Shown here: positions 2,039 through 58,719 of the stretch, piece after piece
How the letters are laid out: each line of letters opens with the position of its first letter
Position numbering within the stretch: position 1 is the stretch's first letter
Assembly: GCA_963827735.1 (NCBI GenBank)
Contig: CAWHBO010000001.1
Span: 40,297-104,296, forward strand
DNA length: 64,000 nt
DNA from: Candidatus Parcubacteria bacterium
Lineage (GTDB): Bacteria > Patescibacteriota > Patescibacteriia > Patescibacteriales > UBA12075
Direction: 5' to 3'
Program-made: the position numbers and the translations under genes
The notes under the pieces: generated by a model
Seen by the model: the letters and a program-made list of their open reading frames with translations, nothing else
What the model was told of the DNA's origin: nothing
The model's database searches: none

Positions 2039-2080
2039 CGGATTAGCACGGATACAGGACGGATATAACGGATCACGGAT
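2038..2080 (+). repeat. Left arm: 5 x ACGGAT-core tandem array (7-11 nt period)
   Basis: ACGGAT at 2038, 2048, 2059, 2068, 2075; reverse complement of the 2514-2556 array. Confidence 0.9.
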
Positions 2081-2101
2081 ATTTAATTAAATGTTTCTAC
2101 T

Positions 2102-2521
2102 ATGAATAAATTGCTTGAAGAAGAATTAACTTACAAGATAAGGGGTTGTATTTTTAATGTTTCAAATAAGTATGGTAGGGGATTGAAAGAAAAAATTTAT
2201 CAGAAAGTATTGGCTGAAGAATTGCTTAAGGCAGGTATAAAATTTGTTGAACAGAAAAGAATTAATATCTATTCATTGGAAACCGGCAAACATATCGGCG
2301 TGTATATTCCTGATTTTGTAATTAATGATAAGATTATCATAGAAATAAAAGCTACTGCTTTTACCACCAGGCAAGATATAGAACAACAAAGGTCGTATTT
2401 GCGGGTAAGTATTTATGAAATCGCGTATTTAGTAAATTTTTCCACTCCAAAACTTGAAATACACAGATCCATATTTACGAACGATAGAAAACCATTTATA
2501 TCTAAAATACTTAATCCGTGA
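2102..2521 (+). CDS. GxxExxY protein (PD-(D/E)xK nuclease-like family)
   Basis: GLKEKIY motif, YIPDFVINDKIIIEIK (PD..ExK) and YLVNF; 139 aa. Confidence 0.9.
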   Translation: MNKLLEEELTYKIRGCIFNVSNKYGRGLKEKIYQKVLAEELLKAGIKFVEQKRINIYSLETGKHIGVYIPDFVINDKIIIEIKATAFTTRQDIEQQRSYLRVSIYEIAYLVNFSTPKLEIHRSIFTNDRKPFISKILNP

Positions 2522-2556
2522 TCCGTGCTAATCTGTATATATCCGTGATTATCAGT
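2514..2556 (-). repeat. Right arm: ATCCGT-core tandem array, inverted relative to 2038-2080
   Basis: ATCCGT/ATCTGT/ATCAGT at 2514, 2521, 2531, 2541, 2551; contains the GxxExxY stop codon. Confidence 0.9.
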
Positions 2557-2563
2557 TAAGAAT

Positions 2564-4015
2564 ATGAGAATAAACAACATAGCCAAAAACACCTCCTACT
2601 TCACCCTCGCCCTCATCCTCCAAAAGGCGCTCAGTTTTGCGTACTTTACCATTCTTGCGCGTAATTTTGTTCCTGATGATCTTGGAAAATATTACTTTGC
2701 CATTTCTTTTACGGCCATCTTCGCCATCATGATTGATCTTGGATTTGCGAATGTGATAACGCGCGAAGTTGCGAAAGCGGGGGAGCGGGCCGGGGAGATT
2801 GCGCGCGCGGTAATAGCCATGAAAATTCCGCTCGCTATCTTGTCGCTTTTATCCGTGGTATTTTTGATAAACCTTTTACACTATCCCGAAAGCACCAAAC
2901 TGCTTGTTTATTTTTCCGCCATTTGCATGACCCTTGACTCCTTCACCCTGGCTTTCTATGCCGTCAGCCGCGGCCGGCATAACCTGAAATTTGAAAGCGT
3001 TGGCTCAGTTGTTTATCAGGTGATTGTTTTGCTTACAGGGATAACGGTCATAAAATTAAATCTCGGATTGGCTTGGCTCATGGCCGCGACCATATCGGCG
3101 AGCCTCATTAACTTTATTTTTTCCTGGGCGGTTCTTAAAATTAAGTGGGGGATAAGTCCTTTGCCTTTTACGGGGGGTTTCAAGTTTGATAAGGTTTTAA
3201 CTCGCGCTCTCGTTGCAATTGCCATACCATTCGCGCTATACGGCATTTTTCAGCGTTTATACATGTATCTGGACAGCGTATTCTTATCCATCCTCGCCGG
3301 CGATTACCAAGTTGGAATTTACCAAGTGCCGTTTAAGATTGTCTTTGCTTTGCAATTCTTGCCATCAGCCTTCATGGCCTCGCTTTATCCGGCGTTTGCG
3401 AGTTATTGGCGGGGTGAAAAAAACCAACTCGCAATTTCTTTTGAACGCGCCATGAACTACCTGACAATCATTGCCTTGCCGGTAAGCGTCGGTGTGATTA
3501 CCCTTGCGGACAAGATTGTAAAATTGTTCAAAACCGAGTATACTGATGCCATCCTTCCGCTCCAACTGGTGATGATCGCCCTTTTTTTCATTTTCATTAA
3601 CTTCCCGATCGGCGCCCTGCTCAACGCCTGCGACCGGCAGAAACGCAACACCTTGAACATGGGCATTGTCCTCGTTGCCAGTATAATTTTAAACCTCTGG
3701 CTGATTCCCAAATTTCAAGCGGTCGGCGCCAGCATAACCGTGATCATCACGAACATTTTGATGTTTATCCTGGGCGCGCTGGTTGTGCCAAAGATCGCAC
3801 CCGTCAGCTTAAGCAAGCTGATTTGGCCATTCTTAAAATCCATTTTCGCAGTTGCCTGCATGGCCTTGATCGTGCTAACATTAAAACCGTACTTGAACAT
3901 ATTTATCGTGATCGCGCTTGGCGGAATGGTCTATGTTTTGTTGCTTTTTGCGATGGGGGGTTTTAGCCGAGAGGATGTGAAGAGTGTTTGGAGGTCTTTT
4001 TCTCATAACTCATAA
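2564..4015 (+). CDS. Wzx-type polysaccharide flippase (MOP superfamily)
   Basis: About 14 hydrophobic segments; IAKNT..ARNF..GKYYFA..DLGF..ITREVA N-terminal signature. Confidence 0.9.
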   Translation: MRINNIAKNTSYFTLALILQKALSFAYFTILARNFVPDDLGKYYFAISFTAIFAIMIDLGFANVITREVAKAGERAGEIARAVIAMKIPLAILSLLSVVFLINLLHYPESTKLLVYFSAICMTLDSFTLAFYAVSRGRHNLKFESVGSVVYQVIVLLTGITVIKLNLGLAWLMAATISASLINFIFSWAVLKIKWGISPLPFTGGFKFDKVLTRALVAIAIPFALYGIFQRLYMYLDSVFLSILAGDYQVGIYQVPFKIVFALQFLPSAFMASLYPAFASYWRGEKNQLAISFERAMNYLTIIALPVSVGVITLADKIVKLFKTEYTDAILPLQLVMIALFFIFINFPIGALLNACDRQKRNTLNMGIVLVASIILNLWLIPKFQAVGASITVIITNILMFILGALVVPKIAPVSLSKLIWPFLKSIFAVACMALIVLTLKPYLNIFIVIALGGMVYVLLLFAMGGFSREDVKSVWRSFSHNS

Positions 4016-4031
4016 CTTGGAACTCATAACT
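4002..4031 (+). repeat. Left arm: CTCATAA/CTTGGAA heptamer array
   Basis: ctcataa-ctcataa-cttggaa-ctcataa-ct; supplies the flippase stop codon. Confidence 0.9.
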
Positions 4032-4033
4032 TT

Positions 4034-4378
4034 ATGGCTTTCCATGATGATCTAAAAAAATACGTTCACGAGTATATAAAATTTATTTATAATATAACAA
4101 AATCTTTTCCCAAAGAAGAAATGTATGGCGTAACTTCACAGTTCAGGCGAGCAGGTATGTCAATTATGTTAAATTATATTGAGGGTTACGCCAGAAACAA
4201 TAAAACCAAAGAAAAAGTATATAAAAATTTTTTGGAAACTTCTTATGGTTCACTTAAAGAGTCAAAATATTTGTTATTTTTTTCATTTGATATAAAATAT
4301 ATTAACAAAGATAATTATACCTACGGCTTGGAATTGTCTGACAAGATCGGAGCTATGCTCTGGAGCTTAATTCAATAA
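4034..4378 (+). CDS. Four-helix-bundle protein (23S rRNA IVS protein / bAvd-like family)
   Basis: FPKEEMYGVTSQFRRAGMSIMLNYIEG and FLETSYGSLKE match the family consensus FPxxExYGLxSQxRRAAxSIxxNIxEG..GSxxE. Confidence 0.9.
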   Translation: MAFHDDLKKYVHEYIKFIYNITKSFPKEEMYGVTSQFRRAGMSIMLNYIEGYARNNKTKEKVYKNFLETSYGSLKESKYLLFFSFDIKYINKDNYTYGLELSDKIGAMLWSLIQ

Positions 4379-4425
4379 ATGAGTTATGCGTTATGAGTTC
4401 CAAGTTATGAGTTCCAAGTTATGAG
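4379..4425 (-). repeat. Right arm: TTATGAG/TTCCAAG heptamer array, inverted relative to 4002-4031
   Basis: atgag-ttatgcg-ttatgag-ttccaag-ttatgag-ttccaag-ttatgag; the last unit supplies the ATG of the next gene. Confidence 0.9.
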
Positions 4426-5569
4426 AGTACTCCTCTTCACTCTAGAATACCCTCCCTTCAAAGGCGGCGTTGCCAACTTTTACGAAAACATTGTAAAACA
4501 TTGGCCCTCCTGCGCTGAAGCTTCGGAGGGCAAGCCTTCCTTCGCTGAAGCTTCGGAGGGCAAGCCCTCTTTGGGAATTTTCGTCTTGCACAACAATAAC
4601 AACAACTTAATAAGCAATAACTTCTTCCCCAAATGGCTGCCGGCTTTTTGGCAACTGTATAAAGCGATCAAAAAAAATAAGATAGACCATGTTTTGGTTG
4701 GGCATATCTTACCGCTCGGCACAGTAACATACTATATTTCAAAAATTCTTAAAATTAAATATTCCGTTTTTCTCCACGGCATGGATCTGGCTTTTTCTCA
4801 AAAGACTCAACGCAAGAAAAACATGAGCCTTAAAATTTTAACGCACGCGTCAAAAATTCTCTGCACCAATTCTTACGTAGCCGAGCTTGTCCGCGAGACG
4901 CTTCCCGATGAAGACAGCCATGATAAGATTGAAGTCATCAATCCCGGAGTGGAGGCGCCGTATATTTCCGGCACAGACACCCGCGCCTTGCAAGAAAAAA
5001 ACAAGCTGGGCGAAAAGCTGGTTTTGTTTACCATCAGCCGGCTGGTAAAAAGAAAAGGCCATGACCTGGTCATAAAAATCATGCCCCAGTTAACGGAAAA
5101 ATATCCCAATCTTTTTTATTATATCGCGGGAACCGGAGAAGATGAGGACTATTTGAAAGATTTGGCCAAGGGCAATGACCATATCATCTTCCTCGGCAAG
5201 CTCAAAGAAAGAGACAAATGGAACTGGCTCTGCGCCTGCGACATTTTCGTCATGCCCTCCAGGCATATAGGTGATGATTTTACGCCAAATGATTTTGAAG
5301 GCTTCGGCATCGTTTATTTGGAAGCGGCAATCTGCGGTAAACCGGTCATAGCCGGCAGAAGCGGAGGCATAGAAGATGCAGTTGTTGACCACGAAACCGG
5401 CATCCTCGTTGATCCTGAAAGCGAAGATAGCATTTTGGACGGCATTGACGAGCTGGCGGGAAATTTTTTGCTCCGAAAAGAAATGGGGGAAAGAGCGCTG
5501 GAAAGAGCGGCGGAAGAATTTAACTGGGGGGATAAGGCGAAGGAGATATATGAGAGGATTGCGGAATAG
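4421..5569 (+). CDS. Glycosyltransferase family 4 (PimA/PimB-like)
   Basis: YPPFKGG, SRLVKRKG and EGFGIVYLEA..GKPVI motifs. Confidence 0.9.
   Translation: MRVLLFTLEYPPFKGGVANFYENIVKHWPSCAEASEGKPSFAEASEGKPSLGIFVLHNNNNNLISNNFFPKWLPAFWQLYKAIKKNKIDHVLVGHILPLGTVTYYISKILKIKYSVFLHGMDLAFSQKTQRKKNMSLKILTHASKILCTNSYVAELVRETLPDEDSHDKIEVINPGVEAPYISGTDTRALQEKNKLGEKLVLFTISRLVKRKGHDLVIKIMPQLTEKYPNLFYYIAGTGEDEDYLKDLAKGNDHIIFLGKLKERDKWNWLCACDIFVMPSRHIGDDFTPNDFEGFGIVYLEAAICGKPVIAGRSGGIEDAVVDHETGILVDPESEDSILDGIDELAGNFLLRKEMGERALERAAEEFNWGDKAKEIYERIAE
4505..4564 (+). repeat. 2 x 30-bp palindromic element inserted in frame in the GT4 gene
   Basis: CCCTCCTGCGCTGAAGCTTCGGAGGGCAAG followed by CCTTCCTTCGCTGAAGCTTCGGAGGGCAAG; encodes PSCAEASEGK/PSFAEASEGK. 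Confidence 0.9.
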
Positions 5570-5604
5570 GGTGTGATAATATAAATTATTTTTACTCTTT
5601 AAAT

Positions 5605-5682
5605 CTCATAACTTGGAACTCATAACTCGTAACTTTTTTAGTCAAATAATTTAAGTTCCAAGTTATGAGTTACGAGTTATGA
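5605..5682. repeat. Empty inverted heptamer-array element (same units as the four-helix-bundle flanks, no cargo gene)
   Basis: ctcataa-cttggaa-ctcataa-ctcgtaa, about 20 nt AT-rich spacer, then ttccaag-ttatgag-ttacgag-ttatga. Confidence 0.9.
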
Positions 5683-5689
5683 AACTAAT

Positions 5690-6394
5690 ATGATCTCCAT
5701 AATAATTCCATTATACAACCAATCCGACAAGATCAAGTCATGCCTTCAGAGCATAAAAAATCAAACTTATGATAATTATGAAATTATCGTCGTTAACGAC
5801 CGGTCGCGCGACCATTTGAGCAAAGTCATAAAATGGGCCCAAAGCGAATTCGGATATAAGCTTCTCTGGATCAACAATCAGGAAAACCATGGAGCGCCGT
5901 ACTCCCGGAACAAAGGCTTATATAAATCCAAAGGCGAATATGTCTTGTTTTGCGACGCTGATATCGTTTTGGAACCAAACGCCTTGGAACTCATGATTCA
6001 AACCCTGAACACCCACCCGGAGGCGGCTTACGCTTATCCTTCGCACTTGCACGGTTCAAAATTGTTTAGACTCTGGCCCTTTGACGCGGAAAAATTAAAA
6101 ACCATGCCGTATATCCATTCCACCGCTCTGGTCCGGAGAAAATGCCTGCCGGCATCCGGTTGGGATGAAACCTTAAAGAGATTCCAAGACTGGGACCTGT
6201 GGCTGACAATGCTGGAGGCGGGACACCAAGGAATCTGGATTGACAACGTTCTCTTTAAAATCGTCGGCGGCGGCCACACCATGAGCGCCTGGCTCCCGTC
6301 GTTTGCATATAAATACCTGCCATTTTTGCCGCGGGTAAAGAAATATAAAGCGGCGATGGAGGTGATAAAGAAGAAGCATGGAATTTTATTTTAA
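5690..6394 (+). CDS. Glycosyltransferase family 2
   Basis: ISIIIPLYN, EIIVVNDRS, FCDAD (DxD) and QDWDLWL motifs. Confidence 0.9.
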   Translation: MISIIIPLYNQSDKIKSCLQSIKNQTYDNYEIIVVNDRSRDHLSKVIKWAQSEFGYKLLWINNQENHGAPYSRNKGLYKSKGEYVLFCDADIVLEPNALELMIQTLNTHPEAAYAYPSHLHGSKLFRLWPFDAEKLKTMPYIHSTALVRRKCLPASGWDETLKRFQDWDLWLTMLEAGHQGIWIDNVLFKIVGGGHTMSAWLPSFAYKYLPFLPRVKKYKAAMEVIKKKHGILF

Positions 6395-6525
6395 TGTCAA
6401 ATTTCCAATTTCCAATGACAAATCAAACTCAAAATCCTAATTTCAAATTAATATAATATTTGTTATTTGATATTTGGATTTGATTGCTTGTGCCCTATGG
6501 GTAGAAATTGGAAATTTGACATTAA
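6391..6525. mobile_element. 135-bp MITE-like element with 22-bp perfect terminal inverted repeats
   Basis: TTAATGTCAAATTTCCAATTTC (6391-6412) and GAAATTGGAAATTTGACATTAA (6504-6525); a second copy lies inverted at 57949-58076. Confidence 0.75.
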
Positions 6526-15762: not shown

Positions 15763-15788
15763 GTAGAGACGAGGCATGCCTCGTCTCT
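15763..15788. repeat. GTAG-type REP-like palindrome between convergent genes
   Basis: GTAGAGACGAGGCATGCCTCGTCTCT: 24-bp perfect palindrome preceded by GT. Confidence 0.75.
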
Positions 15789-24364: not shown

Positions 24365-25321
24365 ATGCTCATAAAAGAAGCGATAAAATACGCAACTGAA
24401 AAATTGCAAACGGCAAAAATAAAAAATCCGCGCCTGGAAGCGGAATTTTTATTATCCCATATCCTGAAAAAATCGCGAGAATATATCTTATCTTATCCGG
24501 AAAAAAAATTAATAAAAATTCAAGTTATGCGTTTTGAGTTATGCGTTACGCAAAGATTAAGGGGTATGCCGCTGGCCTATATTGTCGGCCACAAAGGATT
24601 CTACGGCCTGGATTTCAAGGTTAATAAAAATGTCCTTATCCCCCGTCCGGAAACGGAACTTATGGTTGATAATGTCTTGGAACTCATAACTCGTAACTCA
24701 CAACTTAAAACTCAAAACTCACTTGTACCCGAATGGGCAAAACTTTTAATCATTGATGTCGGCACCGGGAGCGGTTGTATCGCAATCTCACTTGCCAAAC
24801 AATTAAAAAGTTACGAGTTACGAGTTCCAAGTTACGAGATTTATGCGACTGATATCTCCAAACCGGCTCTTATGGTAGCCAAACAAAACTCCAAATCCAA
24901 TAAGGTATATGGCCAGATAAAATTTTTTCCTGGCGATTTACTTGAGCCGGTTATAGATAAGTTACGAGTTACGAGTTATGAGTTACAAGTAATCATCACC
25001 GCCAACCTCCCCTACGGCTGGTCTGCCTGGAAAAACAACACATCAGCCGATACCATAGGTCTAAAATTTGAACCTCAAATCGCCTTGTTTACCGGGAAAA
25101 ATGGTCTTGAGCTTTATGAAAAATTATTTAATCAAATAACAAATATTATTTCAATATCCAAATATCCCAATATCCCAATATCCCTACTCTGTGAATTTGA
25201 TCCCAGACAAACCGCTCAATTAAAAAAAATGATCAAAAAAATTCTTCCAAAGTCAACGACAGTAATAAAAAAAGACCTGAGCGGCCTTGATAGATTGGCA
25301 ATAATAAAAATCCAAAATTAA
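24365..25321 (+). CDS. prmC: Release factor glutamine methyltransferase carrying five in-frame repeat arrays
   Basis: PLAYIVG, VLIPRPETE, DVGTGSGCIA and ANLPY motifs; follows prfA. Confidence 0.93.
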   Translation: MLIKEAIKYATEKLQTAKIKNPRLEAEFLLSHILKKSREYILSYPEKKLIKIQVMRFELCVTQRLRGMPLAYIVGHKGFYGLDFKVNKNVLIPRPETELMVDNVLELITRNSQLKTQNSLVPEWAKLLIIDVGTGSGCIAISLAKQLKSYELRVPSYEIYATDISKPALMVAKQNSKSNKVYGQIKFFPGDLLEPVIDKLRVTSYELQVIITANLPYGWSAWKNNTSADTIGLKFEPQIALFTGKNGLELYEKLFNQITNIISISKYPNIPISLLCEFDPRQTAQLKKMIKKILPKSTTVIKKDLSGLDRLAIIKIQN

Positions 25322-57948: not shown

Positions 57949-58076
57949 TTAATGTCAAATTTCCAATTTCAAATTTCCAATCAAATTCAAATAACAAATG
58001 ACAAAATATTAATATAAAATTTGAAATTAGGACTTTGAACTTGATTTGTCATTGGAAATTGGATATTTGACATTTT
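57949..58076. mobile_element. Second copy (inverted) of the MITE-like element at 6391-6525
   Basis: Its reverse complement aligns along the length of 6391-6525; same TIRs; abuts the nifU stop. Confidence 0.75.
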
Positions 58077-58320: not shown

Positions 58321-58333
58321 ATAAGTCTTAATG

Positions 58334-58366
58334 TTATGAGTTATGAGTTATGAGTTATGAGTTATG
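58334..58366. repeat. Solo (TTATGAG)4+ heptamer array overlapping the iscU stop
   Basis: Same unit as the four-helix-bundle flanks; gives IscU the ..THNS* tail, like the flippase ..SHNS* tail. Confidence 0.9.
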
Positions 58367-58719
58367 TAATCTTTGATTGCCGCCTGCAAAGCATCAACTC
58401 CAAGCATGGAACAGTGAATTTTCTGCACCGGCAAGCCGCCAAGATCGTTTACGATTGAATCTTTGGTAATTTTCAAAGCTTCATCCAAAGTTTTTCCCTT
58501 CACCAACTCTGTCAACGCCGAAGACACGGCAATCGCCGCGGCGCAACCAAGAGTTTCAAACTTTATATCTTTGATTTTGTTGTCCTTGATCTTTAAATAG
58601 ATCTTCATCACATCGCCGCAAGTCGGATTGCCTTCCTGCCCAATGGCATCGGCATCCTCAATCACACCCTGATTGCGGGGATTCTTGAAATGATCCATTA
58701 CTTTGTCAGTATACATCAT
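58348..58719 (-). CDS. iscU: Fe-S cluster scaffold IscU/NifU N-terminal type
   Basis: DHFKNPRN, GNPTCGD, GCAAAIA and LPVQKIHCS motifs. Confidence 0.93.
   Translation of the reverse strand: MMYTDKVMDHFKNPRNQGVIEDADAIGQEGNPTCGDVMKIYLKIKDNKIKDIKFETLGCAAAIAVSSALTELVKGKTLDEALKITKDSIVNDLGGLPVQKIHCSMLGVDALQAAIKDYITHNS

Follow-up and report, generated by a model that had tools for sequence, protein, structure and literature searches.

The locus described here raises the question of how a short hairpin without a gene, lying between two glycosyltransferase genes of a Candidatus Parcubacteria bacterium, is related to a gene-bearing cassette with similar arms located 1.2 kb upstream. The hairpin occupies positions 5605 to 5682 of the window, by which is meant the whole stretch of 64,000 nucleotides that was analysed (G000:C1:40297-104296, G000 being this genome, a 91%-complete assembly of 1.34 Mb; positions given without a contig are those of the window). 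The initial annotation had considered it an empty version of the cassette, which encodes a four-helix-bundle (4HB) protein, and had proposed either a non-autonomous derivative or a scar left after loss of the cargo. With a probability of roughly 60%, we consider it to belong, as a member without a gene, to a family of palindromic elements with heptamer arms, named here the TAACTCA family, which resembles the intervening sequences (IVSs) of rRNA genes and is linked to 4HB cassettes. The parts of the hairpin are the following.

5605-5632: four heptamers forming the left arm of the hairpin (CTCATAA-CTTGGAA-CTCATAA-CTCGTAA)
5633-5655: AT-rich spacer or loop, 23 nt between the arrays, the outer bases of which lengthen the stem
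5656-5682: right arm of the gene-less hairpin, TTCCAAG-TTATGAG-TTACGAG followed by a partial TTATGA

The units, their inverted arrangement and the AT-rich spacer had been described correctly. The element is an imperfect hairpin of 78 nt with four 7-base units per arm and contains no open reading frame (ORF), the arms being separated only by the 23-nt spacer. An inverted-repeat search paired 5606-5635 with 5653-5682 (30 nt, 87% complementary), which leaves 17 nt between the paired arms. The units run A-B-A-C on the left and B'-A'-C'-A' on the right; as the mirror is imperfect, two mismatches fall in each of two unit pairs out of four. The predicted RNA fold has a free energy of -30.3 kcal/mol, compared to -12.5 +/- 2.8 kcal/mol for 200 shuffled sequences (z = -6.3), none of which folded as stably, and a degenerate 22-mer of the arm was found 12 times in the window but not once in 100 shuffles. 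An H-type pseudoknot, hinted at by perfect pairings shifted by 14 nt, was dismissed on steric grounds, by reasoning only. The comparison with Rfam returned two sub-threshold matches to plant microRNA precursors (33.6 and 26.2 bits, for a gathering threshold of about 90), which we regard as a chance likeness between hairpins.

The gene-bearing cassette and the operon around it are arranged as follows.

4002-4029: left arm of the gene-bearing cassette, four heptamers
4034-4378, plus strand: 4HB cargo gene, 345 nt, 114 amino acids (PF05635 23S_rRNA_IVP, TIGR02436)
4384-4425: right arm of the gene-bearing cassette, six heptamers
2564-4015, plus strand: polysaccharide flippase-like gene (PF01943), upstream of the gene-bearing cassette
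4421-5569, plus strand: family 4 glycosyltransferase (GT4) gene, between the gene-bearing cassette and the gene-less hairpin
5690-6394, plus strand: family 2 glycosyltransferase (GT2) gene, directly downstream of the gene-less hairpin

The operon thus reads flippase-like gene, 4HB cassette, GT4, gene-less hairpin and GT2. The arms around the 4HB gene pair over 24 nt at 100% complementarity in the inverted-repeat search; the left arm contains the stop codon of the flippase-like gene (4013-4015), and the ATG of GT4 (4421) comes from the last unit of the right arm. The 4HB gene matches PF05635, a family originally recognised in insertions of rRNA genes, with an E value of 6e-25, and the closest solved relative of its product is XCC0516 of Xanthomonas (PDB 2gsc, E value 1e-9). 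Identity with the Avd protein of diversity-generating retroelements was considered and rejected: the Avd models stayed under their cut-offs, and since no reverse transcriptase match was found in this 91%-complete genome, the 4HB genes are not Avd genes of such retroelements. The view that the hairpin is made of the same units as the cassette arms holds for the unit family (CTCATAA/CTTGGAA/CTCGTAA) and for the polarity, but the order of the units differs.

A full cassette has been copied between unrelated sites along with its arms. The second gene-bearing cassette of the family, at C8:66236-66736, is 98% identical to the one in the window through the gene and the inner arms. The two 4HB genes differ at 6 of 345 positions and in one amino acid, and the inner arm units are exact, whereas the length of the outer arm is not the same (4 units versus about 14). 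The flanks are unrelated, the neighbours of the C8 cassette being a different sugar transferase and a GT4 only 30% identical to that of the window. As the C8 copy shares both the arms and the gene in unrelated flanks, the two were copied together between sites.

Many gene-less TAACTCA hairpins also exist, and they are clustered beside the full cassettes. A regular-expression search detected 49 arrays of the family in the genome, with 3 to 18 units each, and none in a shuffled genome. Fifteen left-to-right pairs with loops of 15-101 nt are gene-less and two pairs enclose a 4HB gene; the remaining arrays either stand alone, with as many as 18 units, or lie within prmC. The polarity is identical in all 17 pairs, with CTCATAA on the left arm, and the reverse was found in none. 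As the initial annotation had suggested, full and empty forms occur side by side, since each of the two full cassettes has a gene-less hairpin of the same family at the next junction, at distances of 1.2 and 1.7 kb; when the 15 hairpins were placed at random, adjacency to both cassettes arose in 0.17% of the trials, with a 1.7-kb threshold that was picked after the data were seen. Five of the gene-less copies (C3:27254, C3:68808, C3:275025, C3:361981 and C5:193802) have a common 30-nt loop unlike the 4HB gene, and all five are asymmetric, with a short mixed arm of 4 units and a long uniform arm of 4-12 units, which points to a sub-family copied as a whole. Outside this genome, the exact arm 22-mer was found again at 8 loci of other metagenome-assembled genomes of the candidate-phyla type, where no ORF of at least 70 amino acids lies between paired arms.

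When all unit types were considered in a stricter, seed-based census, 57 heptamer-armed hairpins were counted, 49 of them with a loop shorter than 150 nt; this is an undercount, because the hairpin at 5605-5682 was itself missed. Period 7 leads in this genome, with 13.8 arrays per 100 kb compared to 1.3-4.9 for periods 5, 6, 8 and 9, and large heptamer families exist, such as the AATATTC type with 50 arrays.

This distribution bears directly on the idea of a scar, according to which a full 4HB cassette once stood at the GT4-GT2 junction and lost its gene by deletion, so that the arms and a short spacer were left. Unit family and polarity are indeed those of the neighbouring full cassette, and cargo does decay in place, as a broken 4HB gene with two internal stops persists inside heptamer arms at C3:312858-313397. 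The stretch TCAAATAA in the spacer also resembles the end of the 4HB gene, TCAATAA, at 7 of 8 bases, a weak likeness in AT-rich sequence. However, a tblastn search of 113 short hairpin loops with 35 4HB proteins gave nothing better than E = 0.1, and the DNA matches in these loops were low-complexity AT runs. Moreover, the TAACTCA family comprises 15 gene-less hairpins for 2 full cassettes, the common loop of the five copies is unrelated to the gene, the unit order of the hairpin is unlike that of either full cassette, and a 4HB gene was found at the GT4-GT2 junction in none of 16 loci from relatives. We therefore consider a scar unlikely, and we think that independent insertion of a gene-less copy at 5605-5682 is likelier than the former presence of a gene there.

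The other origin proposed initially, a non-autonomous derivative, fits the confinement of the arrays to relatives with PF05635 genes. Across related genomes, heptamer arrays were found only where 4HB genes were found. Counting G000, 32 of the order's 41 genomes have PF05635, with a maximum of 15 matches in one genome. Period-7 arrays had a density of 3.3-28.3 per 100 kb in 8 relatives with 5-15 PF05635 matches and of 0-2.5 in 8 relatives that lack such a match, a complete separation, and the density followed the number of matches with a Spearman rho of 0.93; between 20 and 100 kb were sampled per genome, and the p-values exaggerate the association because the genomes are kin and the samples hand-picked. 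Differences in G+C content do not account for the split between the two groups.

The association is also seen at the level of single loci. In this genome, inverted arms of short repeats enclose every one of the seven PF05635 matches, including a broken one, and every one of the three PF13366 genes; the units differ from locus to locus. Among 29 PF05635 loci from 29 genomes, 27 had flanking inverted repeats with a score higher than that of any of 20 shuffles. At 21 of the 29 loci the strongest period of the arms was 7, and at the other 8 it was 6, 8, 9 or 11. When the arm units, labelled by eye, were placed on a tree of 35 4HB proteins, a minimum of 25 changes was required, compared to a mean of 30.5 after shuffling, and none of 200 shuffles was as low. 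Sharing of 8-mers between arms was enriched solely in pairs of proteins at least 60% identical (6 of 18 pairs, versus 7 of 543). Seven of 12 close pairs had at least one arm above the maximum obtained with shuffled left arms, with arms 75-97% and proteins 57-75% identical; two further pairs, with low-complexity arms, scored barely over the control.

These comparisons also allow a host by-product to be weighed, namely that replication slippage makes the heptamer arrays and hairpins and that the 4HB and GxxExxY genes are passengers lodged in their loops. Expansion without a nearby gene is indicated by the unpaired arrays, which reach 18 units, and by the in-frame arrays of prmC, and two unrelated protein folds occupy the same type of loop. 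In addition, a study of TAACTGA repeats reports that heptamers are the most abundant longer simple repeats in many bacteria and that TAACTGA direct repeats exist without inverted partners (PMC4679880). Slippage should nevertheless not track one gene family so closely within a single order, with at most 2.5 arrays per 100 kb in 8 of 8 genomes lacking PF05635 and at least 3.3 in 8 of 8 genomes having it. Nor does it sit easily with two recent cassette copies that bring their arms along, with arm units kept between cassettes whose proteins are just 57-75% identical, or with a polarity of 17 to 0. This explanation thus appears quite unlikely.

Apart from this argument, the repeats of the window include the following elements.

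6391-6525: second gene-less heptamer hairpin, AATTTCC type with a 91-nt loop, at the junction right after GT2
2039-2549, plus strand: cassette of the GxxExxY / PF13366 type (PD-(D/E)XK fold), with the gene at 2102-2521 between inverted ACGGAT-type repeat arrays

The hairpin at 6391-6525 and another gene-less hairpin at 57951-58074 have almost identical arms of 20 nt (AATGTCAAATTTCCAATTTC type). Their loops measure 91 and 84 nt, respectively, and both belong to a second repeat family in the window. The GxxExxY cassette, in which the ACGGAT-type repeats are irregularly spaced, fills the junction ahead of the flippase-like gene; two further GxxExxY / PF13366 cassettes are located at C3:270758-271269 and C3:93434-93900. 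A solitary run of five GTTATGA units (58333-58368), without an inverted partner, lies between two minus-strand genes. Finally, the prmC/HemK-like gene (24365-25321) contains four in-frame TAACTCA-family arrays in both orientations, which are translated as, for example, SYELRV and LITRNSQ, and two of them flank the segment encoding the DVGTGSG motif that binds S-adenosylmethionine.

The elements are found as lineage-specific insertions where two co-directional genes meet. Among 58 heptamer hairpins with short loops, the orientation of the adjacent genes allowed 48 to be classified, and in 44 of these cases the two genes are co-directional. The GT4 proteins of the relatives, which belong to different genera, are 41-54% identical to that of the window at nearest, and a metagenome scan with the GT4 protein yielded 5 loci at 43-51% identity. 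The order flippase-GT4-GT2 is conserved among the relatives, but the hairpin is missing from the GT4-GT2 junction in 15 of the 16 with the same gene order. In 12 of the 16 loci, no more than 50 nt separate GT4 from GT2. The gap measures 86 nt with GC-rich palindromes in L002, 105 nt with a solitary TAACTCA-like array at its start in L004, and 634 nt with no 4HB match in L019, and it is filled by a 119-nt hairpin of other heptamers in L008. Because the junctions of the relatives are short or different, the hairpin is a lineage-specific insertion and not a conserved signal. Similarly, the gap between the flippase-like gene and GT4 is 90 nt or less in 16 of 17 loci; in L007, from genome G019, a different PF05635 gene (G019:C25:44221-44544) is found there, with different arms that also have a period-7 structure. 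In other genera, both junctions have been filled independently.

The hairpin might instead be a host regulatory RNA, that is, a non-mobile intercistronic stem-loop that processes, stabilises or couples the GT4 and GT2 messages. It starts 35 nt past the GT4 stop codon and finishes 8 nt ahead of the GT2 start codon, and this position, the stable fold, the preference for co-directional junctions, the stop codon and ATG provided by the arms of the full cassette and the presence of an RNase III gene in this genome are all in line with such a role. A hairpin kept as a terminator in all relatives, which according to the initial annotation would have refuted its view, is not what the junctions contain, as 12 of the 16 gaps do not exceed 50 nt. 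At 5605-5682 itself, an intrinsic terminator was rejected, since no terminator-like site was found on either strand and the AT-rich stem is followed by AAACTAAT, with no T run. Besides the absence of the hairpin from 15 of 16 relatives, the occurrence of the family at dozens of unrelated junctions and within a coding gene argues against a dedicated regulator. The sense fold was the more stable in 21 hairpins and the antisense fold in 23 (Wilcoxon p = 0.69); because the two are equally stable, the RNA of the coding strand bears no G-U mark of selection, and the symmetry is that of the DNA. We regard a purely regulatory element as improbable, but an effect on RNA is compatible with mobility, so that this alternative is only partly exclusive.

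The GT4 gene and its orthologues have some further features. The right arm of the cassette (4390-4426) and the left arm of the hairpin (5604-5634) are 94% complementary across 31 nt, and the entire GT4 is therefore bracketed by an inverted repeat of opposite polarity; neighbouring elements similarly bracket the housekeeping genes rpsD (C1:13960-14812) and frr (C3:93434-94619). The 5' part of GT4 contains a tandem 30-nt duplication (4504-4563, 93% identical), the translation of which repeats a stretch of the AEASEGKP type. The orthologue of GT4 gives a match in two pieces about 80-160 nt apart in three relatives (G013:C2:11505-12623, G037:C124:4168-5383 and G038:C33:11450-12607); as both pieces are within one open frame in G013 and G038, an in-frame insert is possible in these two.

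That the hairpin is a REPIN, a hairpin of repetitive extragenic palindromic (REP) sequences, moved by a REP-associated tyrosine transposase (RAYT, Y1 family) of this genome is hardly credible: the genome does encode a Y1_Tnp match (C3:347485-347790, 27.6 bits) and a second IS200-like ORF (C3:284346-284758), but both are flanked by their own GC-rich palindromes (C3:347085-348190 and C3:284318-284786) and not by heptamer arrays, and no Y1 gene of this genome is next to TAACTCA arrays. One of these palindromes occurs at 11 sites of the genome, a palindrome copy lies near position 15763 of the window, and as both RAYT-like genes are flanked in this way, the genome also has classical REP/RAYT systems.

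Several observations weigh against the interpretation of the hairpin as a gene-less relative of mobile 4HB cassettes, in addition to the late choice of the adjacency threshold, the sampling of kindred genomes and the equal stability of sense and antisense folds. Inspection by eye revealed no target-site duplication around the hairpin at 5605-5682, around either full cassette or around the five copies with the shared loop, and no transposase is tied to the TAACTCA family. To our knowledge, 4HB proteins have no catalytic activity. For large heptamer families such as the AATATTC type, the 91%-complete assembly contains no resident 4HB gene. A global Mantel comparison of protein identity and shared arm 8-mers, in which one near-duplicate row was dropped, was null (r = -0.035, a value reached in 1285 of 2000 permutations), and 3 of the 12 close pairs showed no arm similarity; the expectation that arms track the protein is thus only partly borne out. 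The mobility of the copy at 5605-5682 would itself be deduced from paralogues and distant relatives only.

On balance, it is plausible that the gene-less hairpins of the TAACTCA family are non-autonomous derivatives of the cassettes. We infer both the mechanism of transposition and the role of the 4HB protein, including the recognition of arms by the protein, along the following lines. The gene-less hairpins would be non-autonomous kin of the cassettes, in the same way as REPINs beside RAYTs or miniature inverted-repeat transposable elements (MITEs) beside insertion sequences. They would spread by an arm-dependent process at the DNA level, using either a factor acting in trans, for which the 4HB protein is a candidate, or recombination between homologous arms. 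Within the transcript of GT4 and GT2, the element would form a stem of about 30 bp, probably a substrate of RNase III as in rRNA IVSs. A broader and much more tentative proposal, which we consider doubtful, is that the 4HB (S23p/IVP) and GxxExxY genes might be the autonomous cores of an extensive class of hairpin-shaped selfish elements without a transposase, each protein recognising the heptamers of its own arms and promoting the copying of gene-bearing and gene-less forms into gene junctions and rRNA helices.

The known elements that come closest are the ORF-bearing IVSs of 23S rRNA genes (S23p/PF05635), as in helix 45 of Coxiella burnetii and in Leptospira. Like these, the cassette at 4002-4425 has a long stem whose loop contains a PF05635 gene, with variable-number heptamers beside the ORF and a poor or absent ribosome-binding site. 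The gene-less hairpin shares with them the long terminal inverted-repeat stem (30 nt, 87%) but has no PF05635 ORF. Short IVS hairpins without an ORF, about 100 nt long, also occur in 23S genes of the Salmonella type. The ORF-bearing IVSs are inserted in helices 25 or 45 of the 23S rRNA, whereas the elements described here lie between protein-coding genes of operons and include dozens of gene-less copies dispersed in the genome; the former are cut by RNase III, of which the latter are predicted substrates. According to a report on the Coxiella IVS, that element contains an S23p ORF and terminal inverted repeats that form a 28-bp stem, which RNase III cuts, together with tandem GACAGAT heptamers whose number varies by strain (PMC4990558). 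The same text terms it selfish, cites the idea of Ralph and McClelland that the ORF serves mobility, and describes the origin and mobility of rRNA IVSs and the function of the S23p four-helix bundle as unclear (PMC4990558). In the present genome, the 23S rRNA gene (C5:127642-130825) has a TAACTCA hairpin about 430 nt upstream and contains about 260 nt of extra sequence, since the match spans 3184 nt for a model of 2925 positions; neither a PF05635 match nor a heptamer hairpin was found inside it.

REP/REPIN-RAYT systems have in common with the TAACTCA family the many short extragenic palindromes, a protein gene flanked by inverted copies of the dispersed repeat, the lack of target-site duplication and the existence of several repeat families per genome (PMC3116915). 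They differ in that the protein is a Y1 transposase and not a four-helix bundle (or, in the sister cassettes, a PD-(D/E)XK fold) and that the repeat is a fixed GC-rich palindrome instead of variable-number tandem heptamer arms; the cognate repeats of the two RAYT-like genes found here are different ones. As in MITEs, the hairpin at 5605-5682 has inverted arms, but no target-site duplication was seen by eye. Integron attC sites were set apart by description, as here both sides of the gene have arms, which consist of heptamer arrays instead of the attC pattern.

Heptamer repeats as such are not new. TAACTGA repeats, one base away from the TAACTCA unit, are known from Beggiatoaceae, Cyanobacteria and Bacteroidetes, and the cyanobacterial short tandemly repeated repetitive (STRR) sequences are comparable; both consist of intergenic head-to-tail 7-nt units with variable copy number. 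The TAACTGA arrays often touch start codons or the ends of upstream ORFs and are in some cases found inside ORFs, all as observed here (PMC4679880). They are described, however, as direct repeats, with 1 inverted set out of 170 in the Guaymas genome, whereas hairpin-forming inverted pairs dominate here (PMC4679880). The terms 'S23', 'four helix' and 'intervening sequence' do not occur in the text of that paper (PMC4679880). In the full-text literature outside subscription journals, we found no published link between heptamer-repeat hairpins outside rRNA and the PF05635 family. In Nostoc, small dispersed repeats are said to occur as short conserved inserts in hairpins and tandem heptamers (Elhai et al., 2008, reportedly), which recalls the 30-nt loop common to five gene-less copies here, and we know of no link between them and 4HB genes.

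For genome annotation, it follows from the present data that the arms of these elements provide the stop and start codons of neighbouring genes and sit in frame within a housekeeping gene (prmC). This genome unites, within 1.3 Mb, gene-bearing cassettes and many gene-less hairpins of the same family, and related genomes exist that have neither, which makes the question of IVS mobility testable. If the proposal of autonomous cores were true, it would account for the IVSs of rRNA genes, for the excess of heptamers in many bacteria and for the function of the 4HB family.

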